Positions 1 through 24,000 of a DNA stretch of 24,000 nucleotides are shown here, piece after piece. The notes below the pieces were generated by a model, which made no database searches, had not been told where the DNA came from, and worked only from the letters and a program-made list of their open reading frames with translations. The stretch's first letter is position 1, and each line of letters begins with the position of its first letter. The stretch comes from Candidatus Scalindua rubra (GTDB lineage: Bacteria > Planctomycetota > Brocadiia > Brocadiales > Scalinduaceae): assembly GCA_001723765.1 (NCBI GenBank), contig MAYW01000029.1, positions 1 through 24,000 on the forward strand, in the 5' to 3' direction. A program made the translations under genes and the position numbers.

Positions 1-188
1 GCCCTCCTTTAACCGCCATATTTAATTTGTCGTATGGCCATCGGCAATCCTGATCGCAAAATAATATGCCGAAAAGAAAAGCTAAGTTTTCAAGGTATTA
101 GCTTATTTGAAGGGGATGCAAAAGAGATGGTATATCGAAAATAAAGGGTTGTTGTGTAAAACCAATTAGTAATATAAAAAACATGCAT

Positions 189-464
189 TGGGTCTCCAGC
201 AGTATCACCTTCCATTAATTCTTCTAACAGCTTCACTACATCAGTTTTTTTTTTAATTGAAGGTCTGCCAGCTCCAACTTTGCGTATTCGTTCTGGTGTA
301 ATGTTCTTAATCAAGAGTTCCTGTCGTCCTTTTGCAATAGTTTTTACATTTACTCCTGTTAGTTGCGATATCTTATGATCGCCACCACGACCAAGTTTCA
401 TTGATTCTAATCCCAAATAAAGCCTCATCTGCTTTTCATCAAGAATTGAAAGAAATACTGGCAA
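189..464 (-). pseudogene. ISAzo13-family (Rhodopirellula-type DDE) transposase, N-terminal fragment only
   Basis: ORF 90..464(-) begins MPVFLSILDEKQMRLYLGLESMKLGRGGDHKISQLTGVNVKTIAKGRQEL...RKVGAGRPSIKKK...LEELMEGDTAGDPM. This is the characteristic N-terminal HTH region of ISAzo13-type transposases. Similarity ends after GDPM (about aa 92) and I could not find the DDE part in any frame of 1..190. Confidence 0.55.
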
Positions 465-6270: not shown

Positions 6271-8034
6271 CTACAGAATCTCCTCGCACGCACATTCTAT
6301 TGAAAGGGCTTGAGACATACGGCTTTTGTCTCTATAAACGGTGATTCCTTTACATCCACCTTTATACGCTAAAAGAAAAGCTCTTTCCACATCTTCCTTT
6401 GTAGTATCTTGAGAAAAGTTTATTGTTTTGGAAACGGCATTGTCTATATACTTTTGAAAAGTAGCTTGCATTTTGATATGCCACTCAGGAGAAATATCTT
6501 TTGCTGTAACAAACACTTCCTTTATCTCTTCAGGAATGCTTTTAATATCTCTAATTGTTCCTTTCATTGAAATTTCTTTAACAAGGGTTGATGAATAAAA
6601 TCCTTTTTCTTTTGCTGCTGCTTCAAATAAGGGGTGTAAACCAGATATATTTTTATTACCAAGAATATGATGAACATAAGATAAAGCGAATAACGGTTCA
6701 ATTCCACTTGAACAATTCGCAATTATGCTTAAGGTGCCTGTTGGTGCAATAGTTGTTCTTGTTGCATTTCTAAATTTTAATGAGTCTGGTTTATTGAGCT
6801 TACTTTTCTCAAAATTAGGAAAAGCACCTCTTTCCTCAGCAAGTCTTGCTGAAGAGAGATTTGCTTCTTTAGAAAAGAATTCCATTAATTTATCAGCGAT
6901 ATTTAAAGCATCTATTGAATTGTAGGGTATACCCATTTTTATAAGCATATCGGCAAAGCCCATAACCCCGAGCCCTATTTTTCTATTGTTTTTTGTCATC
7001 CTGGAAATTTCATTAAGCGGAAATCTATTCACGTCTATAATGTTATCTAGAAAATGTACACTAATCTTTATCGTGTCTGATAGTTTTTCCCAGTTAATTT
7101 TATAGGTATTACCATCTTGTAATAACATTTTGGCCAGGTTTATAGAACCAAGTACACAAGATTCAAAAGGCAGTAAGGGTTGTTCACCACAGGGGTTCGT
7201 GCCTTCAATTTTTCCAATATTTGGCGTTGGATTTGAGTCGTTAATTTTATCTAAAAATATCATGCCGGGTTCACCATTCTTCCAGGCTGCATAGACAAGT
7301 TTATCGAAAACGTCTTTTGCATAAAGTTGTTTTACTACTTTACCTGTGCGGGGATTGACTAAAGGATACTTTTTATTTTTCTCTAGTGCCTTCATAAATT
7401 CATCCGTAATGGCTACTGAGATATTGAAGTTAATTAAATTTCCTTCCTGATTCTTTGCGCTAATAAAATCCAGGATATCAGGGTGGTTTACCCTTAGTAC
7501 TGCCATATTAGCTCCACGTCTAAAGCCTCCTTGATTGATAGATTCTGTTGCCTCATTGAAAACCTTCATAAATGATATAGGACCACTTGCTTTTCCTCCT
7601 GAAGTACTTACAACATCATCTTTGGGCCTTATATTCGAAAAAGAAAATCCTGTACCACCACCGCTTTGGTGAATCAATGCAGCATATTTGACAGTATCAA
7701 AGATACTTTCGATCGAGTCCTCAATTGGTAATACAAAACAGGCAGCTAGTTGCTGAAATTCTCTGCCTGCATTCATAAGTGCAGGAGAATTTGGTAAGAA
7801 TTCCGAGTTTAACATTAAATCATAGAACTGATCTTCTATAGCTTTAATGTCCACACCATTGTTGTATATAGTATCAGCAGATGCAATGTTTCTGGCGATA
7901 CGACGAAACATTTCCATAGGTGTTTCGACAATTTCTCCAAATTCATTTTTTTTCAAATACCTTTCTTCTAGTACTATTTTTGATTTAGGAGAAATTTTTA
8001 TTTTGGAAGAGTTTGTGGATAATTTTTTTGACAT
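6271..8034 (-). CDS. nrdJ: Adenosylcobalamin-dependent (class II) ribonucleotide reductase
   Basis: The ORF is 587 aa. The N-terminus LEERYLKKNEFGEIVETPMEMFRRIARNIA, the active-site TNPCGEQPL, GCKGITVYRDKSR near the C-terminus and a C-terminal Cys pair (ECACEEIL) all fit. There is no ATP-cone. Confidence 0.85.
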   Translation of the reverse strand: MSKKLSTNSSKIKISPKSKIVLEERYLKKNEFGEIVETPMEMFRRIARNIASADTIYNNGVDIKAIEDQFYDLMLNSEFLPNSPALMNAGREFQQLAACFVLPIEDSIESIFDTVKYAALIHQSGGGTGFSFSNIRPKDDVVSTSGGKASGPISFMKVFNEATESINQGGFRRGANMAVLRVNHPDILDFISAKNQEGNLINFNISVAITDEFMKALEKNKKYPLVNPRTGKVVKQLYAKDVFDKLVYAAWKNGEPGMIFLDKINDSNPTPNIGKIEGTNPCGEQPLLPFESCVLGSINLAKMLLQDGNTYKINWEKLSDTIKISVHFLDNIIDVNRFPLNEISRMTKNNRKIGLGVMGFADMLIKMGIPYNSIDALNIADKLMEFFSKEANLSSARLAEERGAFPNFEKSKLNKPDSLKFRNATRTTIAPTGTLSIIANCSSGIEPLFALSYVHHILGNKNISGLHPLFEAAAKEKGFYSSTLVKEISMKGTIRDIKSIPEEIKEVFVTAKDISPEWHIKMQATFQKYIDNAVSKTINFSQDTTKEDVERAFLLAYKGGCKGITVYRDKSRMSQALSIECACEEIL

Positions 8035-11235: not shown

Positions 11236-11424
11236 ATGAAGGTTTATAGATATGTTTGCATACTCGTAGTTATTTTAGTAATGACAATATTTACTATCTC
11301 AGAAGATTCGAGGGTAATAAAGATTGGGTATGAAATTACAGAAATGGAGAAAGAGTTAAAAAAATTATCAGAAGAAAACAAAAAAGTTAGCACTCAAGTC
11401 AGACAAATTGAAGACTTACGATAA
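11236..11424 (+). CDS. ftsL: FtsL-like small bitopic division protein (possibly truncated; continuation in +1 frame to 11551)
   Basis: It occupies the position between rsmH and ftsI. It has an N-terminal TM helix (YVCILVVILVMTIFTI) followed by a coiled coil (EMEKELKKLSEENKKVSTQVRQIEDL). The +1 frame continues DKISLKVKDMKLNLIISDGYKDITIV... Confidence 0.55.
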   Translation: MKVYRYVCILVVILVMTIFTISEDSRVIKIGYEITEMEKELKKLSEENKKVSTQVRQIEDLR

Positions 11425-11690
11425 GATATCTTTAAAAGTAAAAGATATGAAGCTGAATCTGATTATTTCAGATGGTTATAAAGACATTACTATTGTAAAA
11501 ACGCCTCAAGAACAACCGAACAAGAATCTTCATGGAAAAATTGAGACGTAGACTATAGTAAGTTAAGGTAATATTTTTTTAAACCAATTGTTGTAAAAGT
11601 GCATAATGTTAAATAGAAAAAAAAATTCCTAGCTGTTTTAGAATCAGGGCGAACATATTATATATTTGCATTTTTATAATATTCTCTGCA

Positions 11691-13343
11691 TTGCTCTATC
11701 AGCTTATTCGCATTCAAATCCTTGACTACAAAAAATATTCCTCATTAGCTTTTTCACAACAATTCAAAAAATTAGATATTCCCACGAGAAGAGGGCTTAT
11801 TTTTGATAGAAACGGGGTCAAATTAGCAGAATCAATTCAAACGAATTCTGTCTTTGCAGACCCTTTCTTAATAAAAGACAAGAAGAGGACCTCTCAAGTT
11901 ATATCTAATGTGCTTCAGTTAGATAGTGCAAGAGTCCTGAATCTATTAAATAAGAAAAAGAGATTTGTATGGATAAGAAGGAGGATAACAGATAAACAAG
12001 CGGATGCAATAAGGGAATTAAATCTTAAAGGTATTGGTTTTAGGCATGAGAACAAAAGGGTTTACCCTTACGGAAAACTATGTTCTCATGTGTTGGGCTT
12101 TACTGATGTAGATGAAAATGGCTTGGAGGGTGTTGAAAATTCACTCAATCATATCCTTTCAGGAAATAAGGGTTATAAGGTAATCGAAACAGACGGTCGC
12201 CAACGACAATTTTCTACATTAGATGAAGAAACTGTTTCGGCAAGATACGGTAATAGTGTCTTTTTAACAATTGATTGTGAAATTCAGTCCATAGTTGAAG
12301 ATGAGCTTGAAGATGCATGTTTGAAATGGCGAGCAAATTCAGCCACTGCAATTGTAATAGACCCTTCAACAGGTGAAGTATTAGCAATGGCTAATTACCC
12401 TGCATTTGATCCAAACTTTGTACAGAATTCTAAGCCACATGAAAGACGTAATAGGGTAATTACAGATTGCTTTGAACCAGGTTCATTGATTAAACCCATA
12501 ATCGTATGCGGTGCGCTGGACGGTGGCTTAGTGAAAGAAAATGAAATGTTTTTTTGTCATAACGGTAATTATAGAGTTAGAAAAAGGGTTATCAGGGATG
12601 TTCATCCATACAATTATCTAACCGTATCCGAAATAGTAATTAATTCGAGCAATATAGGAATGGCACAGTTAGGGATGCTTATGGAAAGAAAGAGATTATA
12701 CAACCATTTGAAGAATTTCTCTTTTGGTGAGAAGACAGGAATACAATTACCTGGTGAAGCTAGGGGTATAGTAAGACCCTTAAGATTATGGTCTACTGAT
12801 TCAGCAATTTCAGTTGCTTTTGGCTATGAGACGGCAGTTACACCTATGCAGTTATCGACAGCTTTCTGTTCGATTGCTAATGGTGGGATGTTGTTAAAAC
12901 CACAAATTATCCATGCAATAACTGATTACTCAGGTAAAAGGGTAAAAAAGAAATTTGGGACCGCTGAACGAATTAGGCGAGTTATCACTCCAAAAGTATC
13001 AAGAGAAATAATGACGCCTATATTGGAGAATGTTATAAAGGAAGGAACGGGGAAAAGAGCAGGGCTTTTAGCGTATAGGATTGCGGGAAAGACTGGTACA
13101 GCCAAGAAATTACGAAGGGTTGGGGGTAGAATGGAGTATTCTAATAATAAATATGTTAGTTCTTTTGTTGGATATGCGCCTGTGAATGATCCAAGAATAT
13201 GTGTGCTGGTATCTTTGAACGAGCCTAAAAACGGCGCTTATTATGGGGGTACCGTAGCTGCGCCAGCAGTGAGAAATATCATAGAAAGGGCACTTCATTA
13301 TATGCGAGTGGAATCACAGCATGTACAGGTAGCTCAGAAATAA
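11691..13343 (+). CDS. ftsI: Peptidoglycan D,D-transpeptidase FtsI (class B PBP); true N-terminus probably starts at ATG 11606 in another frame
   Basis: SxxK is present (GSLIKP), SxN (SSN in INSSNIG) and KTG (AGKTGTA). The dimerisation-domain sequence lies upstream. The membrane anchor is only recovered by joining frames at the A9 run 11617-11625. Confidence 0.85.
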   Translation: MLYQLIRIQILDYKKYSSLAFSQQFKKLDIPTRRGLIFDRNGVKLAESIQTNSVFADPFLIKDKKRTSQVISNVLQLDSARVLNLLNKKKRFVWIRRRITDKQADAIRELNLKGIGFRHENKRVYPYGKLCSHVLGFTDVDENGLEGVENSLNHILSGNKGYKVIETDGRQRQFSTLDEETVSARYGNSVFLTIDCEIQSIVEDELEDACLKWRANSATAIVIDPSTGEVLAMANYPAFDPNFVQNSKPHERRNRVITDCFEPGSLIKPIIVCGALDGGLVKENEMFFCHNGNYRVRKRVIRDVHPYNYLTVSEIVINSSNIGMAQLGMLMERKRLYNHLKNFSFGEKTGIQLPGEARGIVRPLRLWSTDSAISVAFGYETAVTPMQLSTAFCSIANGGMLLKPQIIHAITDYSGKRVKKKFGTAERIRRVITPKVSREIMTPILENVIKEGTGKRAGLLAYRIAGKTGTAKKLRRVGGRMEYSNNKYVSSFVGYAPVNDPRICVLVSLNEPKNGAYYGGTVAAPAVRNIIERALHYMRVESQHVQVAQK

Positions 13344-13759: not shown

Positions 13760-15211
13760 ATGAAATTGAGTACATTAGTTCGCCATTTAGATTCAAAAGG
13801 AACATACAACTTTAGTGATGTTGAAATAATTGGTGTTACAAATGACTCTAGAAATGTGAAACCTGGTTACCTTTTTGTTGCGATTAAGGGATATAAAACA
13901 AATGGACATAATTTCATTGAAAAATCTCTTGAACGTGGTGCAATTGCTATTGTTAGTGAAAGAAAATACTGTCTTAGTCAAAAGATTCCTCAAATAATCG
14001 TTTATGACTCAAGGAAAACACTTTCCAATCTAAGTTGCAGTTTTTACAATAACCCATCTCAAAAAATTAATGTTATTGGGATAACGGGTACAAATGGTAA
14101 GACAACTACGGCTTTTCTAACCAAGTTTATACTTGAATCGGCAGGATATGAAACGGGATTAATCGGAACGATTAATTATCAAGTAGGAAAAAGAGTCATT
14201 CCCGCACAAGAAACGACACCTGAATCAGTGAAACTTCAAAGTCTCCTCGCAGAAATGGTAGCTTCAAAGATAAAATACGCAGTGATGGAAGTATCCTCCC
14301 ACTCGACTGCTCAACACAGGATTGAGAATATTAACTTTAAAACGGCTGTCTTTACTAATATAAGTACTGAGCACATGGATTATCATAAAACGATATCAAA
14401 TTATATGGATGCCAAAATAGAATTATTCAAAAATTTAAGAAGAGACTCTTTTGCAATATTAAATGCAGATGATGAGTATAGTAAATATTTTTCTGATAAA
14501 ACAAGAGCACAAAAAATATGGTTTGGAATAAAGAATAATGCTGACATAAAAGCTGAGATATGTAGTGAATCCATGAGTAATATTGTGATTAAGATGATCT
14601 ATTTAGGGAATAAAATAGATATTAAAATACCTTTTATCGGTTTACATAATGTTTATAATGTGCTTGCCTCTGCTGCAGTTACACTTTCACTTGGATTTGA
14701 ATTAGACGCAATAAAAAATGGTATTGAAACTGCGCCTGTTGTACCCGGGAGACTAGAAAGAATACCTTGTGAACGCGGTTTTGAAATTATTGTTGATTAT
14801 GCTCATACCCCACATGCCCTCGAAACTGTATTGCATGCGCTTAAGAATTTGGTGAAAGGCAGGGTAATCCTTGTTTTCGGTTGTGGAGGTGATAGAGATA
14901 AAGAAAAACGTCCAAAGATGGGAAAAATAGCCGATGAAAATTCTGACATTTTTTGGATAACAAATGACAATCCACGTTCAGAGGACCCGGCAAGAATAAT
15001 CGAAGATATCAAGGTTGGAATAAAAGCAGGAAGGCCATTTCACGTCCAGATGGATAGATATAAAGCAATAAAAGAGGCGCTAGATGAAGCAGAAAAAGGT
15101 GATCTAGTACTGATTGCAGGAAAAGGTCACGAAAAATATCAAGTAATCAAAGATGCGAAAATCCCTTTTGATGATAAGGAAGTAGTCAAAAATATACTCT
15201 CAAGATATTAA
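13760..15211 (+). CDS. murE: UDP-N-acetylmuramoyl-L-alanyl-D-glutamate--2,6-diaminopimelate ligase
   Basis: The P-loop GITGTNGKTTT, DYAHTPHALE and the MurE-specific DNPRSEDP motif are present. Length is 483 aa. Confidence 0.9.
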   Translation: MKLSTLVRHLDSKGTYNFSDVEIIGVTNDSRNVKPGYLFVAIKGYKTNGHNFIEKSLERGAIAIVSERKYCLSQKIPQIIVYDSRKTLSNLSCSFYNNPSQKINVIGITGTNGKTTTAFLTKFILESAGYETGLIGTINYQVGKRVIPAQETTPESVKLQSLLAEMVASKIKYAVMEVSSHSTAQHRIENINFKTAVFTNISTEHMDYHKTISNYMDAKIELFKNLRRDSFAILNADDEYSKYFSDKTRAQKIWFGIKNNADIKAEICSESMSNIVIKMIYLGNKIDIKIPFIGLHNVYNVLASAAVTLSLGFELDAIKNGIETAPVVPGRLERIPCERGFEIIVDYAHTPHALETVLHALKNLVKGRVILVFGCGGDRDKEKRPKMGKIADENSDIFWITNDNPRSEDPARIIEDIKVGIKAGRPFHVQMDRYKAIKEALDEAEKGDLVLIAGKGHEKYQVIKDAKIPFDDKEVVKNILSRY

Positions 15212-15471: not shown

Positions 15472-16632
15472 ATGATGACAAAAAGGCTAAAAATAATTAC
15501 TAGTCTGGTTTATACCTTTATAATGTTAAGCTCGTTTAATCTATCATTTACGATTGGTAGTGATCAACCCGACCCATCATCACCTGCTCGCCTGAATGAC
15601 CCGTCCGATACGGCACGGGCGGGCGAAGTCGAGCAGGTACAAGAACCGGAAGGCGAATGGCTCCTGCCCGAAAGGCTTGGTCAGGCGGGTAGCCGGGAGG
15701 GCAAAGCCATCCTGGTGGGAATAACCAATACATCTGAATGTTTTTTTACAGATAATTTTTCAAAACATGGTTTCAAACCAGTGCCAGATGAGTGTCCATA
15801 CCTTGATAATAGTGGAAAATTATATGACAACTTCATGTATAGAGAATGGTGTGAAGAAACATTTGACAATGGAAAATATATATATGAGGCATACAAGGAT
15901 ATAGCTTTCAATATAAAATACACTCCAGAACCAGCTAAAACTGACATCTGGCAAACTCCATTTGAAACCATCAGGTCAAAGAAGGGTGATTGCGAGGATG
16001 CCGTCTTTCTTTTTTTCTCACATCTCCCCTCAAAACAAAAAAACGCTATGATTACATGGGGGTGGGTAAATGACAAAGGAAGCAGAGTTGCGAGGGCACA
16101 TGTATGGTATCAACTGATAGATAAGGGAGGACAACAATATATTGTAGAAGCCTTCTCTAAAGATTGGGATGGAATAATACCAATTGGAATTGTAGAAGAG
16201 ACTGAATCAAGAAGACCAATATTTACAATAACACACTCAGAAGTTTGTAGACTGGCCAGTCTAACCTCAAAACCAGATAGCTGGCATACATACCAATCAT
16301 TAATAGATTTATGTGAATCAGCAAATTTTATAGATTTTTATTCCAGGAACATAAACATCTCTCAGGGTATGGATACTCAAAACCATCTAGATTACGAGGT
16401 CATTGAATATCTGCTGAATACACAAAGTAAGCCCTTTGAAAATACGACGGCTCATAGATACCCCACCAGCCACAAAACTCCTCCAGTTATGGGCAAAGAA
16501 ATATCTAACATCCTTGAAAAACTTCATGGACTTTTTACTAGATGTGAGAGACAGAGAGAAAATTTTGGCTCAAACTTGCAAATTGGTACTTCGACGGCGC
16601 TCAGTATCAACCCTGAGCAAACCCGTCCTTGA
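15472..16632 (+). CDS. Secreted transglutaminase-like / BTLCP-like cysteine peptidase-fold protein
   Basis: There is an N-terminal signal-like sequence (MMTKRLKIITSLVYTFIMLSSFNLSFTIGS). The Cys motif WQTPFETIRSKKGDCEDAVFLFFSHL is followed by a His motif ARAHVWYQLIDKGGQQYIVEAF, which fits the Cys-His(-Asp/Glu) arrangement of transglutaminase-like peptidases. This is motif-level evidence only. Confidence 0.55.
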   Translation: MMTKRLKIITSLVYTFIMLSSFNLSFTIGSDQPDPSSPARLNDPSDTARAGEVEQVQEPEGEWLLPERLGQAGSREGKAILVGITNTSECFFTDNFSKHGFKPVPDECPYLDNSGKLYDNFMYREWCEETFDNGKYIYEAYKDIAFNIKYTPEPAKTDIWQTPFETIRSKKGDCEDAVFLFFSHLPSKQKNAMITWGWVNDKGSRVARAHVWYQLIDKGGQQYIVEAFSKDWDGIIPIGIVEETESRRPIFTITHSEVCRLASLTSKPDSWHTYQSLIDLCESANFIDFYSRNINISQGMDTQNHLDYEVIEYLLNTQSKPFENTTAHRYPTSHKTPPVMGKEISNILEKLHGLFTRCERQRENFGSNLQIGTSTALSINPEQTRP

Positions 16633-16717
16633 GGTCGGGGAAAGTCGAAGGGTTGATTATAGAGGTATAATGAATACCCACTCTAAAAGAAATCTAAATT
16701 GTAGACGATAAAGGAAA

Positions 16718-17072
16718 ATGGATATTATAAAAGTTTCTGACATTTTGAAGGCGACTAGTGGAAAGTTAATTCAAGGTAATTCGGAATTAAATATTACAGG
16801 GATATCAACAGATACAAGGTCTATAAAAAGTGGAGAAATATTCTTTGCTTTGGAAGGCAAAAATTATGATGGTTATGAGTTTGTTAAACAAGCCATATAT
16901 AAGGGCGCAGTTGGCGCGGTAATATCGAGTTGCAAAAGAGTTAAGTCTACATCGCTTAATGGTTCTCATAAAAGGCTCAAGAAAAATGAAACTTGAGTGT
17001 GTTTCACGCCAAATCGAGAATTGTTTTTCAAAGAAAAAAGAAACTAATACCGCACTGCTAAGTTTAGTCTGA
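16718..17072 (+). pseudogene. murF: murF remnant (UDP-MurNAc-tripeptide--D-Ala-D-Ala ligase): N-terminal domain fused out of frame to the extreme C-terminus; central ~1 kb missing
   Basis: 16718..about 16925 reads MDIIKVSDILKATSGKLIQGNSELNITGISTDTRSIKSGEIFFALEGKNYDGYEFVKQAIYKGAVGAVI (MurF N-domain). The +1 frame 16923..17072 reads YRVAKELSLHRLMVLIKGSRKMKLECVSRQIEN... (MurF C-terminal KGSRGMKLE motif). There is no P-loop or central domain. Confidence 0.8.
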
Positions 17073-17132
17073 AACTAAGAATACTATTAAATTCGTCTTT
17101 TTAGTGTCATTAAGCTGCTATGGAGAAAATAA

Positions 17133-18228
17133 TTGTTTTATAACTGGGTTTATCCACTTCACGACCATTTTCAAGGACTCGAAATAATAAGATACATATC
17201 ATTTAGAGCAGGCGTAGCAGCTATAACAGCTTTTTTTAATAAGCGTACTTATAGGAACAAAAATAACAAAAATACTAAAAAAATATAAAGTTTCAGAAGA
17301 TACTACTAAGACTGATTCTGAAACATTGAAAATTTTACACAAAGACAAAAAAGACGTGCCTACAATGGGCGGTATCATTATATTGATAGCGATTTTTATT
17401 TCCACCTTGCTCTGGTGTAACTTGTTTAACATATACGTCTTAATGGTATTGTTTACAACTATTTGGCTTGGCGCCCTGGGTTTTTTTGATGACTACATAA
17501 AATTGACACAAAAACATTCATCTGGTTTAACTAGCACATCAAAACTCCTCTTCCAATGCGGCCTGGGACTTATCCTGGGTTTGATGTTGTATTTTCATTT
17601 TAATGAAATTAATGACGGAACAAAACTTGTGATACCATTTTTCAAAGAAATCAGACCGGACCTGGGGGCATTTTATGTATTAATGGTTATGTTTTCCGTT
17701 GTAGGAATGTCCAATGCAGTCAACATTACTGATGGTCTTGATGGACTAGCAATTGGATGCACGGTGATAGCTGGTCTAGTCTTTACCTTGATAGCCTATA
17801 TCGTGGGACGTGTTGACTTTAGTAGCTACTTACAGGTTCCCTATATAGCAGGGACTGGTGAGCTAAGTATTTTATGCTCTGCGTTGGTAGGCGCTGGACT
17901 AGGTTTTATGTGGTTTAATTGTTTTCCCGCACAGACATTTATGGGAGATATAGGTTCATTGCCATTGGGGGGTATGCTTGGTCTTATAGCAATTATTGTG
18001 AAGCAAGAACTACTTCTTTTTTTTATAGGTAGCATATTCATTGTGGAAGCGCTCTCAGTGTTATTACAAGTTAGTGTATTCAAGATTTCTGGAAAGAGAG
18101 TGTTTATGTGCGCACCTCTTCACCACCATTTTCAATTTAAAGGCTGGCCAGAACCAAAAATTACAGTAAGGTTTTTAATAATTGCCGCAATAATGTCACT
18201 TTTTAGCCTGATAACTCTAAAATTATGA
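17133..18228 (+). CDS. mraY: Phospho-N-acetylmuramoyl-pentapeptide transferase MraY, frame broken at the T7 run 17231-17237 (track ORF 17326..18228 is the in-frame distal part)
   Basis: TTG 17133 follows GGAG at 17122-17125 and gives MFYNWVYPLHDHFQGLEIIRYISFRAGVAAITAFF (canonical MraY N-terminus, RYITFRA motif). The +1 frame continues LISVLIGTKITKILKKYKV...KKDVPTMGGIIIL...NAVNITDGLDGLA... Confidence 0.85.
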
Positions 18229-19448
18229 AGGTTTTAAAAAGCCAATTTGCAACTAATACAAACTGTAACATGGATATACAATCGAACTTAACCAGAGGTC
18301 TTAATCAGATCGAAATACGCAGTTTAGAACCAGCAAATGTCATTATGTATCTCATTACAACTTTACTCGTGATCGGGATAATTATGATATACAGCGTGAG
18401 TTCAATAAAAGTAGGTGAAGGTGTTAATTCAATGAACATTGCTTTTTTTAAGCATATATTGTGGATAATCCTTGCTTTAATAGGTATGTTAACCATGATG
18501 AGATTTGATTATCATAATTTACAAAAATATAGCATGGCAATTCTCATCATTGCTCTTGTCGGCCTGGTAGTTGTGCTCATTCCTGAAATAGGAACTGTAT
18601 CTAACGGCGCTCGAAGATGGATAAGGTTTGGAAGTTATTTTGGGTATCAGCCATCAGAATTCGCCAAACTTGCAATGATTATCTTTATGTCGAGTTATAT
18701 AGCGAAAAATCAGGAAAAGATGACAAACTTTACAAAGGGTTTTGTGGTTCCTGTTATATTAATTGGTGTTGTTTCCTTGCTTATTTTGAGAGAGCCTGAT
18801 TTTAGTACAGCCATGTTCATAACATTAATCTCATTTATGCTAATAATAGCTGGAGGAACCAGGATAATTTACGTAATCTTTACCATAATAGCATCGATTC
18901 CTCATATTTATGAAATTGTTTATAAAATTCCAACTTATCAAAAAAACAGAGTAGTAGCATTTCTTGATCCTTGGAAAGATCCTGAAGGAATTGGCTATCA
19001 AATCATACAATCATGGATTGCGCTTGGCTCAGGAGGATTAACAGGATTGGGACTGGGAGAAGGACGTCAGAAATTATTTTTTCTACCCGAAAGTAATAGT
19101 GACTTTATCTTTTCAATAATTGGAGAAGAGCTAGGATTTATAGGGACGACATGTATTGTCATTATGTTTGCCTTACTAGCATGGCAGGGGATGAGGATTT
19201 GTAAGTCAGCGCGTGATACATTCGGTTTTTTTCTTGCATTGGGCATAAGTGTTTCAATTGCCTTGCAATCAGCTATAAATATTGCCGTTGTCACTGGATC
19301 TATACCAACAACAGGCGTTCCATTACCATTTATAAGTACGGGAGGCTCATCACTATTTTTGTCGCTGCTGGGAATAGGAATACTTTTAAATATTGCGAAG
19401 CAATCAAAAAATAACACTATTTCAGTATTCGATACAGGAAAATATTAG
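18225..19448 (+). CDS. ftsW: SEDS-family peptidoglycan glycosyltransferase FtsW
   Basis: It is a multi-TM protein with QPSEFAKLA and LPESNSDFIFSIIGEELGF motifs. The start ATG overlaps the mraY stop (ATGA at 18225-18228). Confidence 0.85.
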   Translation: MKVLKSQFATNTNCNMDIQSNLTRGLNQIEIRSLEPANVIMYLITTLLVIGIIMIYSVSSIKVGEGVNSMNIAFFKHILWIILALIGMLTMMRFDYHNLQKYSMAILIIALVGLVVVLIPEIGTVSNGARRWIRFGSYFGYQPSEFAKLAMIIFMSSYIAKNQEKMTNFTKGFVVPVILIGVVSLLILREPDFSTAMFITLISFMLIIAGGTRIIYVIFTIIASIPHIYEIVYKIPTYQKNRVVAFLDPWKDPEGIGYQIIQSWIALGSGGLTGLGLGEGRQKLFFLPESNSDFIFSIIGEELGFIGTTCIVIMFALLAWQGMRICKSARDTFGFFLALGISVSIALQSAINIAVVTGSIPTTGVPLPFISTGGSSLFLSLLGIGILLNIAKQSKNNTISVFDTGKY

Positions 19449-19458
19449 GAGTTGTAAT

Positions 19459-20601
19459 TTGAAAGTTGTTTTTGCTGGTGGAGGCACTGGCGGGCATTTA
19501 ATGGCGGGTCTAAGTATAGCACAGGAAATATCATCTCGGTTTCCTGATACTGATATAGTTTTTTTTGGTACAAATAAGAAAAATGAATCAGGATTCATAG
19601 AAAAGAGCGGCTATGAGTTTAAACAAATTAAGGCATGTAAGTTAACATCTTTTATTCGTTTGCCGGTTTTTGTTTTTATCTCATTAATTGGGATAATACA
19701 TTCCATAATTAATATTATAAGAATTAAACCTGACATAATCGTCGGGTTAGGTGGCTATGGTTCAGTTTCACCTGTTATTGCAGCATATATTATAGGTGTG
19801 CCAATTGTTTTGATAGAACAAAATGTTATACCAGGAGGAGCTAATTTAATAATGGCAAGATGGGTAGATGCTATCCTGTGCCATTGGGAAGATACAACAA
19901 AAAGGTTTAAGAAAGCACATTCTATTAGTGTTACTGGTATACCGGTGCGTAAGAACGTTATAAAAAGTGAAATAGAGATTAATAATAATCCGTTTGGTTT
20001 AGCTTATCAAAAAAAGACATTGTTGATAATGGGTGGCAGTCAGGGTGCTCAAGCTATAAATAAAGTAATATTACAAAGTGTTCCAAAACTTAAAACTTTA
20101 ATTCCAGATTTGCAAATTATTCATTTTAGCGGAAAGCATGGATACAAAGAAATTAAAGCTACTTATGATAATATAGGAATAAAATCTTTTGTTTCTGAAT
20201 TTTTTGATGATATAGGCATTGCCTATGGATTATCAGATGTTGTTATTTGCCGGGCTGGGGCAAATACAGTTGCAGAAATTACTGCTGTAGGCATTCCAGC
20301 AATCTTTATACCTTATCCATATGCGACTGATAACCATCAGTACTGGAATGCTTATGAACTTGCCAGGATGGGAGGCGCCTTAATCATAAAGCAGGATGAG
20401 TTGAAGCCTGAAAAGATTGTAGAATTAGTATCAAATTTACTTACGAACGACGAAAAACTAAATAATATGAAGAAGATTAACAGCAGTTTGAGCAAGCCAT
20501 TCGCTGCTGCAAAAGTTGTGGAAAAAATATGTCAAATACTTGAGAAAAAAAAGACTAAAAATGAACCTTACTTCACAAAGTTATTATCAGGAAATAAGTA
20601 A
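19459..20601 (+). CDS. murG: UDP-N-acetylglucosamine--N-acetylmuramyl-(pentapeptide) pyrophosphoryl-undecaprenol GlcNAc transferase
   Basis: TTG 19459 follows AGGAG (19447-19451) and gives (M)KVVFAGGGTGGHL. GGSQGA is present and the C-terminal half is CRAGANTVAEITAVGIPAIFIPYP. The track ORF start at 19393 lies inside ftsW and is unlikely. Confidence 0.85.
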   Translation: MKVVFAGGGTGGHLMAGLSIAQEISSRFPDTDIVFFGTNKKNESGFIEKSGYEFKQIKACKLTSFIRLPVFVFISLIGIIHSIINIIRIKPDIIVGLGGYGSVSPVIAAYIIGVPIVLIEQNVIPGGANLIMARWVDAILCHWEDTTKRFKKAHSISVTGIPVRKNVIKSEIEINNNPFGLAYQKKTLLIMGGSQGAQAINKVILQSVPKLKTLIPDLQIIHFSGKHGYKEIKATYDNIGIKSFVSEFFDDIGIAYGLSDVVICRAGANTVAEITAVGIPAIFIPYPYATDNHQYWNAYELARMGGALIIKQDELKPEKIVELVSNLLTNDEKLNNMKKINSSLSKPFAAAKVVEKICQILEKKKTKNEPYFTKLLSGNK

Positions 20602-22195
20602 TCAACATTACCCTGACATTGTTAATTACGGCAAAAACTATGGGAAATACGTTTACTTTATTGGTATCGGTGGTGCAGGAATGGGTGCAATTGCTAAGAT
20701 TTTGATAGATGAAGGTTGTTTTGTATCTGGTTCCGATTTGGAATGCTCTCCCATTACTCATGATCTTGCAAAATTGGGTGCCAAGATTAACACGGAACAG
20801 GAAGGAAGGGGGCTTGATTCATATACAAACTTAGTAATAACTTCTGCTGCTATTAATGAAAACAATCCTGATCTTAGGAAGGCAAGAATGTTAGGACTAA
20901 AGGTCATTAAATATTCTGAGTTTTTAGGTTCTTTAATGAAAAATAAATGTGGCATTGCAGTAAGTGGTACACATGGTAAAACCACCACAAGTGCAATGAT
21001 TTCTACAATATTGAAAAAGACAGGTCATGAGCCAACATTCGTAATTGGTGGTAACGTTGCAGAAATTGGAGGTAATTCTTGTGTTGGAAAAGGAAGCTTT
21101 TTTATTGCTGAAGCATGTGAATATGATAGGACATTTTTGAATCTGTCACCTCAAATAGGAGTAATCACTAATATAGACGAAGATCATCTGGATTACTATA
21201 AAGATATTAATGGAATAACAGATGCTTTTACAGAGTTTATATCCTTGATTCCTGAAGATGGTTTACTTGTAATAAATAATGATGATACGAACATTAAGAA
21301 GGTTATAGAGAGTGCAAAATGCAGGATTGAAAGTTATTCAATTTTTATGACGTCTAACCTGCCCGACAAGCCAATTCCTATCCAAAAGACTCCGACCCGA
21401 CAAAACCATTTTGGTAAATGGTCAAATAGACAAGGGATACCTGTGTTATATAGATCCTCCTCACTTAGTGTAACTTCTGAACAGCTAATTGATGAGTCAG
21501 ATAATAAAATATATTGTGAATTGGATGCAAAATGGCTTGCTATTGTATATTATTTTGATAAGGAAATAACTCGTTTTAGTCTATTTAATGTGGGGGAGTA
21601 TTTTGATGACTTCTGTCTCAAGATACCGGGATTACATAATGTATCGAATGCGCTTGCAGCAATATCTGTTTGCAATTATATAGGCTTAAATAAAAAAGTT
21701 ATAAAAAAAGCATTAGCTTCATTTAATGGTGTAAACCGACGTTTTCAAACCATTAGTAGTAAAGATAGAATTACGATTATCGATGATTATGCCCACCATC
21801 CTACAGAAATTAGGACAGCATTGGAAACAGCAAAATCAATCTATCCTTCACAACGGCTTTGGTGTGTATTTCAACCGCATCAACATAATCGTACAAGACT
21901 TCTTCTAAAAAAATTTGCTATGGCACTCGCACTTGCTGATAAAGTAATCATCACTGATATTTATCCTGCAAGAGATTCAGATATAGAAAGGGCGTCTGTT
22001 AGTTCGTTAGATCTTATGTATGAATTGCTGGAAATCGGTGGTGATGTTGAATGCGTTAAAAGTATCTCTGAGATTGTAGATAGTTTACGTTTGAATGTAA
22101 AAACAGGTGATATTATTTTAACATTAGGCGCCGGTAACATATGGGAAGCGGCATACGGTTTAAAAAATTGCCTTGAAAGCGAATATGATTGGTAG
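20561..22195 (+). CDS. murC: UDP-N-acetylmuramate--L-alanine ligase with an in-frame insertion of about 60 aa
   Basis: MNLTSQ...FIGIGGAGMGAIAKIL, GTHGKTTTSAMI, IPGLHNVSNALAA and DDYAHHPTEI are MurC motifs. The likely start is ATG 20561; the track start 20516 lies deeper inside murG. Confidence 0.85.
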   Translation: MNLTSQSYYQEISNQHYPDIVNYGKNYGKYVYFIGIGGAGMGAIAKILIDEGCFVSGSDLECSPITHDLAKLGAKINTEQEGRGLDSYTNLVITSAAINENNPDLRKARMLGLKVIKYSEFLGSLMKNKCGIAVSGTHGKTTTSAMISTILKKTGHEPTFVIGGNVAEIGGNSCVGKGSFFIAEACEYDRTFLNLSPQIGVITNIDEDHLDYYKDINGITDAFTEFISLIPEDGLLVINNDDTNIKKVIESAKCRIESYSIFMTSNLPDKPIPIQKTPTRQNHFGKWSNRQGIPVLYRSSSLSVTSEQLIDESDNKIYCELDAKWLAIVYYFDKEITRFSLFNVGEYFDDFCLKIPGLHNVSNALAAISVCNYIGLNKKVIKKALASFNGVNRRFQTISSKDRITIIDDYAHHPTEIRTALETAKSIYPSQRLWCVFQPHQHNRTRLLLKKFAMALALADKVIITDIYPARDSDIERASVSSLDLMYELLEIGGDVECVKSISEIVDSLRLNVKTGDIILTLGAGNIWEAAYGLKNCLESEYDW

Positions 22196-23066
22196 TCAAG
22201 AAATTATTGATGAGATTTGCAGATATGATGTACCATTACAAAGATATACTTCTTTCAAGACAGGAGGTGCAGCAGAGATATTTGTGGAACCAAGGAATAC
22301 CTCAGAGTTAGAGAAAGTACTCCAGTTCTGTAAGGATGAACAGAAGAAGATATTCATTTTTGGAAATGGGACCAACATCCTCGTTAATGATAATGGTGTT
22401 AGAGGTATGGTAATTCGTTTAGGAGGAGTTAATTTTAAGAAGGTAAGCAGAATTGATAAATACGTGTCTTCTGGAGCAGGTGTGGACCTCTCTCAACTTA
22501 TTCGGAAGACAGCCTTATGGGGATTAGAAGGTTTAGAAGTATTGGTAGGAATTCCGGGTACTGTAGGTGGTGCAGTGATGATGAATGCTGGAGGGAAGCA
22601 CGGGAATATAAGCGAAACGATAAGTTCTATTACAACAATGACTTTTGATGGTAAGATCAAAGATTATAATCGTGAAGATGTTGAGTTTACATATCGTGGG
22701 TGTAATCTTGATAAACAAATAGTTATGAAAGTAGAGTTCATTCTTAAGGAATCAAGAAAAGAAGAAATTCTTGAAAGGATGGATAAAATCTATAAAGAAA
22801 AGAAAGAAAAACAACCGTTATCAACCTTCAGTGCAGGTTGCATATTTAAAAACACACATTACTTTAAAGCCGCAGAACTTATTGAAAAGGCAGATCTTAA
22901 AGGGAAGAAAGTAGGAGGCGCTATTGTTTCTAAAAAACATGCAAATTTTATAGTTAATACGGGAAATGCTACCAGTGCTGATATACTTGAACTCATAAGA
23001 ATAATCAAGGAAACTATTAAGAAAAAATACAATGTCTCATTAGAACAAGAAATACAAATATGGTAA
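22185..23066 (+). CDS. murB: UDP-N-acetylenolpyruvoylglucosamine reductase
   Basis: YTSFKTGGAAEIFVEP, GNGTNILV, IPGTVGGAVMMNAGG and SAGCIFKN are MurB motifs. The start is ATG 22185 or TTG 22173, overlapping the murC end. Confidence 0.85.
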   Translation: MIGSQEIIDEICRYDVPLQRYTSFKTGGAAEIFVEPRNTSELEKVLQFCKDEQKKIFIFGNGTNILVNDNGVRGMVIRLGGVNFKKVSRIDKYVSSGAGVDLSQLIRKTALWGLEGLEVLVGIPGTVGGAVMMNAGGKHGNISETISSITTMTFDGKIKDYNREDVEFTYRGCNLDKQIVMKVEFILKESRKEEILERMDKIYKEKKEKQPLSTFSAGCIFKNTHYFKAAELIEKADLKGKKVGGAIVSKKHANFIVNTGNATSADILELIRIIKETIKKKYNVSLEQEIQIW

Positions 23067-23299
23067 CAACTTGCGTTTTCCATTTTAATTGCTGAGAACG
23101 TACGTAATTTTGAACTATTACCTTTAGGGCTTTTTTCTTTTGATCATTTGGTATTGTAATTTGTTTGGGATTTGTTATTTGAGATTTGTAATTTATCAAA
23201 CTAAACTCCTGTTTGGTTCTGGCTTGTCCAGGTTAGGGTACGGTCTGTTATTCTCTGTGCACCTAAAAAATTAGGGAATTAACTCCATATTAAACGATA

Positions 23300-23409
23300 G
23301 TGATCCCTTGGGTCACTACCTGTCTGCGTGCGAACACGCACAGGCAGGCAAACTATGAAAATTGGATTCCTTGCGAAAGCAAGGCTACAGAGCCTCCCTC
23401 TCGGGAGGA
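23300..23409. repeat. GC-rich hairpin module cluster, copy B (inverted relative to 4750-4950)
   Basis: Hairpins lie at 23300-23316, 23319-23348, 23369-23384 (CCTTGC-GAAA-GCAAGG) and 23393-23408. The 30-nt hairpin equals the reverse complement of 4750-4779 except for its 2-nt loop centre. Confidence 0.75.
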
Positions 23410-23457
23410 TTCCAGGAATCTATTTTCATAGCAAAATAAAGGAGAATTCCACACCTT

Positions 23458-24000
23458 ATGTTTCAATTAGAGAACATAATGGGAATTGTTGTAACCGACA
23501 AAGATGGAATTATAAAGTCGGTGAGCAGTCATAGTGACGATTTAATTCCCAGCTTAATTGGAGTTAAGTGGTACAATGCTCTTTCGATACCGGTAGAAGA
23601 ATCATATAAAGCCGAAGATAAATATCCAAAGGTTTTCAGGTTGATTGAAACTGGACAAAAAATCACCGTATATCCTTCCTATGGTGAAAGAGGAGATGTA
23701 TCTGGGCTTCATATTTTGGTGGAGAAAACAAGTTTTGGAGAAGTCCCAACACAGTTTTTGAATAAAATGTTATGTTTAGGGAAGATCGTCCCTGGAGTTG
23801 CTCATGAGATTAATAATCCCTTGACCTTTGTTTCAGGATGGTTACAGATGTTCCTTTTGGAAGCACATGATACTGACCCCAAAAAAAAGACCTACAAGGC
23901 GCTTATCAAAGAGTTTGAACGAATAGCCAGGTTAACTAATAATCTACTTGAATTTGCAAAACAAATTCCAAAATCAAAAAAAATCTTTGATGTAAAACAA
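23458..24000 (+). CDS. Sensor histidine kinase, 5' partial (runs off the window)
   Basis: The frame is open from ATG 23458 to the window end (181 codons). It has a PAS-like N-terminal part followed by the H-box GKIVPGVAHEINNPLTFVSGWLQM (HisKA). AAGGAG lies at 23439-23444. Confidence 0.75.
   Translation, partial: MFQLENIMGIVVTDKDGIIKSVSSHSDDLIPSLIGVKWYNALSIPVEESYKAEDKYPKVFRLIETGQKITVYPSYGERGDVSGLHILVEKTSFGEVPTQFLNKMLCLGKIVPGVAHEINNPLTFVSGWLQMFLLEAHDTDPKKKTYKALIKEFERIARLTNNLLEFAKQIPKSKKIFDVKQ

Follow-up and report, generated by a model that had tools for sequence, protein, structure and literature searches.

The window analysed here is a 24,000-nt stretch of DNA (contig MAYW01000029.1, positions 1 to 24,000) from the Candidatus Scalindua rubra MAG. 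The window MurE is the deposited protein ODS33413.1, a 92-aa ORF discussed below is ODS33415.1, and FtsW is ODS33417.1; the contig is 37,390 bp long. S. rubra is an anammox planctomycete, and its MAG, with 92% completeness and 5.1% contamination, originates from the interface of brine and seawater at Discovery Deep, Red Sea; the three Scalinduaceae drafts tabulated have genome sizes of 4.1-5.2 Mb (PMC5486813). ORF, Pfam, NCBIfam and tblastn evidence places a dcw cluster within the window, with the following features.

9799: mraZ
10312: rsmH
11236-11548 (+): ftsL-like gene, with a +1 frameshift adjoining an A6 run
11625-13343 (+): ftsI (PBP3-type), intact, with the SxxK, SxN and KTG motifs present
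13760-15211 (+): murE, intact, 483 aa (NCBIfam NF001126, E = 6e-180)
15472-16632 (+): gene for a 386-aa secreted, putatively LapG-like (transglutaminase-fold) cysteine protease, between murE and murF
16718-17072 (+): murF remnant, whole, between murE and mraY
16718-16961 (+): murF remnant, N-terminal part, codons 1-81 (PF01225, TIGR01143, tblastn)
16718-16996 (+): 92-aa ORF, 81 MurF codons followed by 11 out-of-frame codons (ODS33415.1)
16955-16965: deletion junction, as placed by nucleotide alignments to six related murF loci
16962-17072 (+): murF remnant, C-terminal part, codons 441-476 and the natural stop (tblastn)
17133-18228 (+): mraY, frameshifted by +1 at a T7 run; apart from this, 83% identity to S. 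arabica MraY
18225 (+): start of ftsW
19459 (+): start of murG
20561-22195 (+): murC
22173-23066 (+): murB, with a histidine kinase gene next

The murE gene is free of stops, and its product is 76% identical to S. arabica MurE. The genes ftsW, murG, murC and murB (18225-23066) are all intact as well, so that Pfam and tblastn bear out what the original prediction had said of these five genes. The mraY start codon is a TTG at 17133, 61 nt past the murF stop; the original prediction had given 60 nt. There is no murD in the S. rubra dcw cluster or in any Scalinduaceae locus examined, and no ddl follows murB in the S. rubra window. The ORF called for MurC is 559 aa long, or about 543 aa counted from its conserved start, compared with 523-526 aa in relatives; the extra length is an insertion of about 17 residues within ORF residues 280-345, and the Pfam match is split around it.

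Farther from the remnant, a 402-aa ORF for an IS630-type DDE_3 transposase occupies 895-2103 in a block with a GC content of 45%, compared with about 35% elsewhere, and a fragment of another transposase-like ORF adjoins this block at 90-464 (-). A 587-aa ribonucleotide reductase gene (6271-8034, -) lies between small ORFs and queA, and is missing from this queA-side site in S. brodae and other relatives. An Rfam scan of the window gave no match, promoter and terminator scans gave results at chance level, and a repeat scan near the murF remnant gave nothing relevant.

The first frame from 16718 encodes the MurF N-terminus and runs into a stop at 16996, as predicted, which gives the 92-aa ORF. 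Residues 26-77 of this ORF match PF01225 (Mur_ligase, E = 3.3e-7), the sole Pfam domain there, and residues 31-72 correspond to positions 1-42 of the 418 positions of TIGR01143; the score of 44.9 bits is below the curated cut-off of 288.6. In a tblastn search, residues 1-82 of the 476-aa S. arabica MurF align to 16718-16963 with 73% identity (E = 8e-31), and the N-terminal homology thus extends about 35 nt beyond 16925, where the original prediction had let it end.

Residues 441-476 of the same S. arabica protein align to 16962-17069 in the other frame, with 75% identity (E = 1e-10). This second frame reads ...VLIKGSRKMKLECVSRQIENCFSKKKETNTALLSLV* and ends at 17072. The natural murF stop is the TGA at 17070-17072, and the tail, NTALLSLV*, is the natural C-terminus of the 476-aa MurF. 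Many full-length Scalindua MurF proteins match the C-terminal piece with their residues 441-467 (81-85% identity, E about 1e-12), a sequence similarity that is far beyond chance, and the proposal that the piece might have no homology to MurF is thereby set aside. On its own it gives a weak match to TIGR01143 (positions 397-415, E = 0.077); its identity is settled because close relatives such as S. arabica MurF align with it. The stretch first read as the MurF C-terminus, 16923-17072, is therefore correct from 16962 onward, while its first part, YRVAKELSLHRL, is the N-terminal part read in the wrong frame.

Alignments to six related murF loci show that about 1076 nt are missing between the two parts, corresponding to residues about 83-440, and that this number is not divisible by 3. 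The junction motif, AATGGTTCT, is similar to the left and the right parental sequence alike. The remnant has no Pfam match to PF08245, the domain with the GxxGKT P-loop, and none to PF02875, the C-terminal domain, of which the last 36 residues alone remain, in a different frame. The missing central domain is not found elsewhere in the window, where only paralogous matches to MurE and MurC, with 25-30% identity, were obtained. These results agree with the prediction that about 1 kb is lost, and with it the P-loop domain and the greater part of the C-terminal domain.

The position of the remnant, after murE and before mraY, is orthologous to that of murF in 15 intact Scalinduaceae loci with which it shares synteny; alignment with these dcw clusters, which had been suggested as a check, shows murF intact in the 15 loci and its interior missing here. 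The intact MurF proteins (TIGR01143) of S. arabica, S. brodae and S. japonica resemble the remnant over the N-terminal 81 and C-terminal 36 residues, with 73-83% identity, and intact Scalindua murF genes share its location between murE, or the LapG-like ORF, and mraY. The remnant differs from them in that residues about 83-440 are gone and the two parts are out of frame. Both flanks are homologous to one intact gene, the interior is absent, and the frame is broken, as in an internal-deletion pseudogene. These alignments confirm that murF between murE and mraY is an N- plus C-terminal remnant, left by an internal deletion of about 1.1 kb. All that such a locus can encode is a 92-aa peptide, not a Mur ligase. 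The fragment ODS33415.1 has been deposited under the full MurF name, and pathway reconstructions for S. rubra will therefore wrongly count this step as present.

One illegitimate deletion took the approximately 1076 nt, codons about 83-440, out of murF and left the two stumps joined out of frame. The deleted codons are those for the ATP-binding P-loop domain and for the greater part of the C-terminal domain. The locus is probably a true pseudogene of the dominant Candidatus Scalindua rubra population in the sample.

The same contig could arise if the dominant genome had a full-length murF and the assemblers had taken a deletion path, representing an artefact or a minority allele. All of the S. 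rubra evidence comes from a single Ion Torrent data set, for which the authors corrected contigs for 'persistent IonTorrent-specific errors'. The assembly was done with CLC and then SPAdes, with a CLC bubble size of 5000 followed by iterative reassembly, and the sample also contained a second, rarer Scalindua species (PMC5486813). These procedures, the incompleteness and contamination of the MAG, and the homopolymer frameshifts in mraY and ftsL, which as residual errors would show that the assembly is imperfect, all lend this explanation some weight. However, a Logan contig from run SRR3738821 (L001, 1099 nt) is 100% identical to 16632-17730 and passes unbranched through the junction; it and the MAG were produced by different assemblers from one shared Ion Torrent read set. 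Furthermore, no repeat longer than 8 nt is common to both breakpoints in seven intact relatives, so a collapse of the k = 31 graph is ruled out. Ion Torrent sequencing errs by indels of single bases, not by the deletion of a kilobase. Finally, a protein collection that includes the Logan products of SRR3738821 gave, among the best 120 MurF matches, no MurF, complete or partial, whose termini are of the S. rubra type, the maximum identity being 74% to the N-terminal stump and 85% to the C-terminal stump. Misassembly, which the original prediction had named as the finding that would overturn it, is thus unlikely, and the feature is probably a genuine and recent murF deletion pseudogene.

The window MurE was used as a query against one genome per GTDB species, which gave 21 Scalinduaceae loci. 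A full-length, stop-free murF of 456-476 aa is found at this position in 15 of the 21, and in another (L020) murF is intact as far as the contig end. Three contigs (L011, L014 and L028) end ahead of murF, and at two loci (L008 and L009) murF is absent between the LapG-like ORF and mraY. S. brodae and a lineage from a JGI metagenome (L053) have an intact murF in the dcw cluster, and S. japonica has an intact 476-aa MurF, seen as the protein alone. Every Scalinduaceae murF of known context among the loci examined is located in the dcw cluster. The S. rubra stumps are 73% (N-terminal) and 75-83% (C-terminal) identical to the S. arabica group, and intact orthologues at a similar distance are 56-71% and 61-74% identical over the same segments. 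Since the stumps have not diverged further than intact orthologues, we infer that the deletion is recent in evolutionary terms, relative to the divergence of the lineages.

The 386-aa ORF upstream of the remnant is conserved at the murE-murF site in most Scalinduaceae, with 55-69% identity. It has the motif DxWQTPxET...GDCEDAVFLF...AHVW, which is of the BTLCP/LapG type (DxWxTPxE...GDCED), and Cys174 and His210 are invariant or nearly so. The family profile matches LapG 4u65_E at the DxWxTPxE...GDCED motif (E = 9e-4), and an AF2 model (pLDDT 74) gave a Foldseek match to LapG 4fgq_A (E = 3.9e-5); a single-sequence AF2 model, with pLDDT 34, was unusable. The predicted transglutaminase-like fold, the Cys-His pair and the motif together suggest that the ORF belongs to the LapG/BTLCP type of periplasmic cysteine proteases. 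The family is small, with 114 cluster representatives among 1.84 billion; S. brodae, L053, L020 and L026 either lack the ORF or have a degenerate form of it. Two sister lineages show a reciprocal pattern at this site, L053 having murF without the LapG-like ORF and L008 the reverse. In relatives, c-di-GMP genes (HD-type and GGDEF) lie directly downstream of the cluster.

A 72-nt GC-rich insertion at 16585-16656, found in no relative, replaces the C-terminus of the 386-aa ORF in S. rubra. It folds as a branched hairpin with a free energy of -31.6 kcal/mol (z -2.5). The Logan contig starts inside this insertion, which hints at a repeated element, and there is a single copy in the window.

Two other genes of the cluster are interrupted. 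The T7 run at 17231-17237 in mraY contains an additional T, the corresponding sequence of relatives being TTTCTT, and the gene is split after codon 35; the ftsL-like gene, 103 aa in relatives, has an additional nucleotide beside an A6 run (about 11382-11389), with the remainder in the next frame. The other conserved genes of the window are uninterrupted. The cluster outside murF is thus not wholly intact as it stands in the assembly, and the original prediction had passed over both frameshifts. Homopolymer +1 indels fit the Ion Torrent error mode, and for this reason both frameshifts are probably sequencing errors. If the mraY frameshift were real, a second step of lipid II formation would be broken. 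One could then propose that the murF, mraY and ftsL lesions are all real and reflect a general decay of the wall and division cluster, with a drift toward life without a wall in the osmotically buffered setting of the brine interface. It would agree with this proposal that all three broken genes are in the dcw cluster, the window's other conserved genes being intact, and that the Logan contig, too, has the frameshift in mraY. However, that contig was built from the same reads, both frameshifts are +1 insertions at homopolymers, and errors of this kind were reported as persistent by the authors of the genome. Moreover, ftsI, murE, ftsW, murG, murC and murB are free of lesions. We regard general decay as unlikely.

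The two loci without murF in the species survey are the Rifle MAG RIFCSPLOWO2_12_FULL_40_19 (L008) and a Hainich groundwater MAG (L009), both with the order murE, LapG-like ORF, mraY. At their junction, ...GATAAAGAAAAATGAAGCTT..., an in-frame deletion of 1344 nt has joined the start codon of murF directly to Met449. The arrangement is present on 11 contigs: the one from Hainich, and all ten from the Rifle aquifer among the matches listed, which belong to four NCBI MAGs and six ENA assemblies. At the DNA level L008 and L009 are about 4% apart, and comparison of the two gives dN/dS values of 0.19 for murE, 0.16 for mraY, 0.25 for ftsW, 0.18 for murG and 0.14 for murC. Values of 0.14-0.25 indicate that the remaining pathway has been under purifying selection since the Rifle/Hainich deletion. 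Proteins of the sister lineage L053, in which murF is intact, are 92-99% identical to those of L008.

A contig from a Red Sea-series metagenome (L004), with about 90% DNA identity to the S. arabica group, has a different deletion, of 1257 nt and also in frame, which leaves 49 N-terminal and 8 C-terminal codons of murF followed by an intact mraY. In L006/L007, murF is otherwise intact and has a stop at codon 57. In L005 (ERZ27232232 k141_141978, 255-896), murF codon 49 is joined to an unrelated glycine-rich ORF; the break is at the same codon as the start of the L004 deletion, and the join may reflect either a chimeric contig or a true rearrangement. The full-length murF genes of L002 (3x long reads) and L003 (2x coverage) are frameshifted, which may be due to sequencing errors, and were left out of the count. 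The sampling of broken alleles is biased, since a short N-terminal query favours short products, and more than 100 intact sequences stand against the few that are broken.

The mechanism of these deletions is ordinary when compared with known microhomology-mediated deletion pseudogenes. The junctions in the window and in L004 share merely a few bases, whereas the Rifle/Hainich deletion is flanked by two 12-nt near-identical sites, AAGAA[G/A]AATGAA, as seen in the parental sequence of L053. What is unusual is the target gene and the recurrence. At least two related lineages have deleted murF independently, with other wall-pathway genes kept, and the dcw murF would have been inactivated at least four separate times in Scalinduaceae. 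Loss of the dcw-cluster murF therefore appears to be tolerated in the family, as judged from the relatives rather than from the S. rubra genome; it is recurrent in these free-living bacteria and stably tolerated in one lineage, that from groundwater. No publication that deals with Scalindua murF or with the Rifle MAG was found.

MurF is an antibiotic target and, to our knowledge, is regarded as indispensable wherever peptidoglycan is made. What then replaces it? The groundwater lineage has diversified without murF while its lipid II genes were under selection, and so the D-Ala-D-Ala step must either be provided by an unlinked, nonorthologous gene or be dispensable. In the first case, MurF activity would come from a divergent paralogue or an acquired Mur ligase outside the window, and the peptidoglycan would be ordinary. 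S. rubra may retain MurF function in this way, given a MAG that is 92% complete. FtsI retains its SxxK, SxN and KTG motifs in S. rubra and also in the Rifle lineage without murF, which suggests that D-Ala-D-Ala donors still exist, and the purifying selection on the remaining pathway after the loss of murF points in the same direction. Unlinked wall genes are normal in Scalinduaceae, murD being outside the cluster in all of them and ddl in most. Furthermore, Kuenenia takes up the dipeptide EDA-DA, and thus uses the MurF route (PMC4432595).

The searches for such a gene, however, speak against it. No second S. rubra MurF, and no protein labelled as from a Rifle MAG, is found among the best 120 matches, which extend down to 61% identity. 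One 476-aa MurF labelled S. rubra (P0074) was considered as a second copy and rejected: the sequence is shared with S. brodae (KHE92778.1), the label sits on another MAG, and the gene is in a normal dcw cluster. Two further candidates for relocated copies, P0119 and P0052, were likewise rejected, both being in the dcw clusters of other lineages. In a collection of 15 billion proteins, there is no MurF at least 90% identical to P0052, that of the sister lineage, although MraY of the Rifle lineage is present there on at least 20 contigs. Finally, as noted above, the Scalinduaceae murF genes of examined context are all in the dcw cluster.

In the second case, lipid II would be made from UDP-MurNAc-tripeptide or by another route, and murF, perhaps together with ddl, could be lost. 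The independent deletions in S. rubra, the Rifle/Hainich lineage and L004, with the rest of the cluster kept where the locus is long enough, are in accord with this. In the Rifle lineage, neither MurF nor Ddl has an orthologue near that of the sister lineage, whose other proteins are 92-99% identical; the protein collection contains no Ddl at least 87% identical to the sister's P0179, where the Rifle Ddl would be expected. In Kuenenia, EDA-DA is incorporated, and yet the commonest muropeptide monomer is the tripeptide M3 (PMC4432595). Buchnera of Aphidini aphids have lost murF and still build a wall (PMC9116674). On the other hand, absence from a list of matches is indirect evidence, the identity expected for an S. 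rubra Ddl is right at the cut-off of the list, and the conserved FtsI transpeptidase motifs point to pentapeptide donors. A review of obligate intracellular bacteria found MurF and Ddl in all surveyed organisms thought to possess peptidoglycan (PMC5814848). Known exceptions are found among endosymbionts, the Buchnera of Aphidini being one (PMC9116674).

The position of ddl does not help to decide. Co-loss of ddl with murF at the locus was considered and is uninformative, as ddl is also absent after murB in S. brodae, whose murF is intact. As the window (23066-24000) and the loci L013, L010 and L003 show, ddl follows murB in the S. arabica group only, and in L003 an ftsQ-like gene is next. What comes after murB in S. 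rubra, S. brodae, L053 and the Rifle lineage is a cassette with genes for a histidine kinase, a response regulator and GAF-HD proteins. The 10 kb downstream on the Rifle contigs contain histidine kinase, HD and GGDEF genes only, and no ddl. A metagenome scan with a chimeric MraY+Ddl query returned only distant relatives, since conserved 8-mers swamped the signal.

Taken together, we favour compensation by an unlinked ligase over a pathway without D-Ala-D-Ala, because the DD-transpeptidase motifs of FtsI are conserved; we hold compensation to be a plausible reading, just short of an even chance. It is a more tentative possibility, to which we give about half that weight, that the D-Ala-D-Ala branch is dispensable. 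Equally tentative is the corollary that some free-living anammox Scalinduaceae produce peptidoglycan precursors, and put them to use, with no MurF and, in the groundwater lineage, apparently no Ddl either. This corollary covers S. rubra, the Rifle/Hainich groundwater lineage and an S. arabica-like population. If it is true, the lipid II pathway would end at a tripeptide stem in these bacteria, or the D-Ala-D-Ala enzyme would lie outside the known MurF family.

The nearest parallel is in insect endosymbionts, in which one stem-peptide ligase gene is lost and other peptidoglycan genes persist; besides Buchnera, Moranella of mealybugs is reportedly such a case of murF loss. Those bacteria are obligately intracellular, with reduced genomes and host compensation, whereas Scalinduaceae are free-living and have no host to supply the step. 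Repeated loss of murF with the rest of the wall pathway kept is therefore unexpected. The family would offer a natural experiment, in which murF is repeatedly deleted while murC, murE, mraY, murG, ftsW and ftsI are kept under selection. It would test whether the D-Ala-D-Ala step is always needed for the bacterial wall, or point to an unrecognised ligase.
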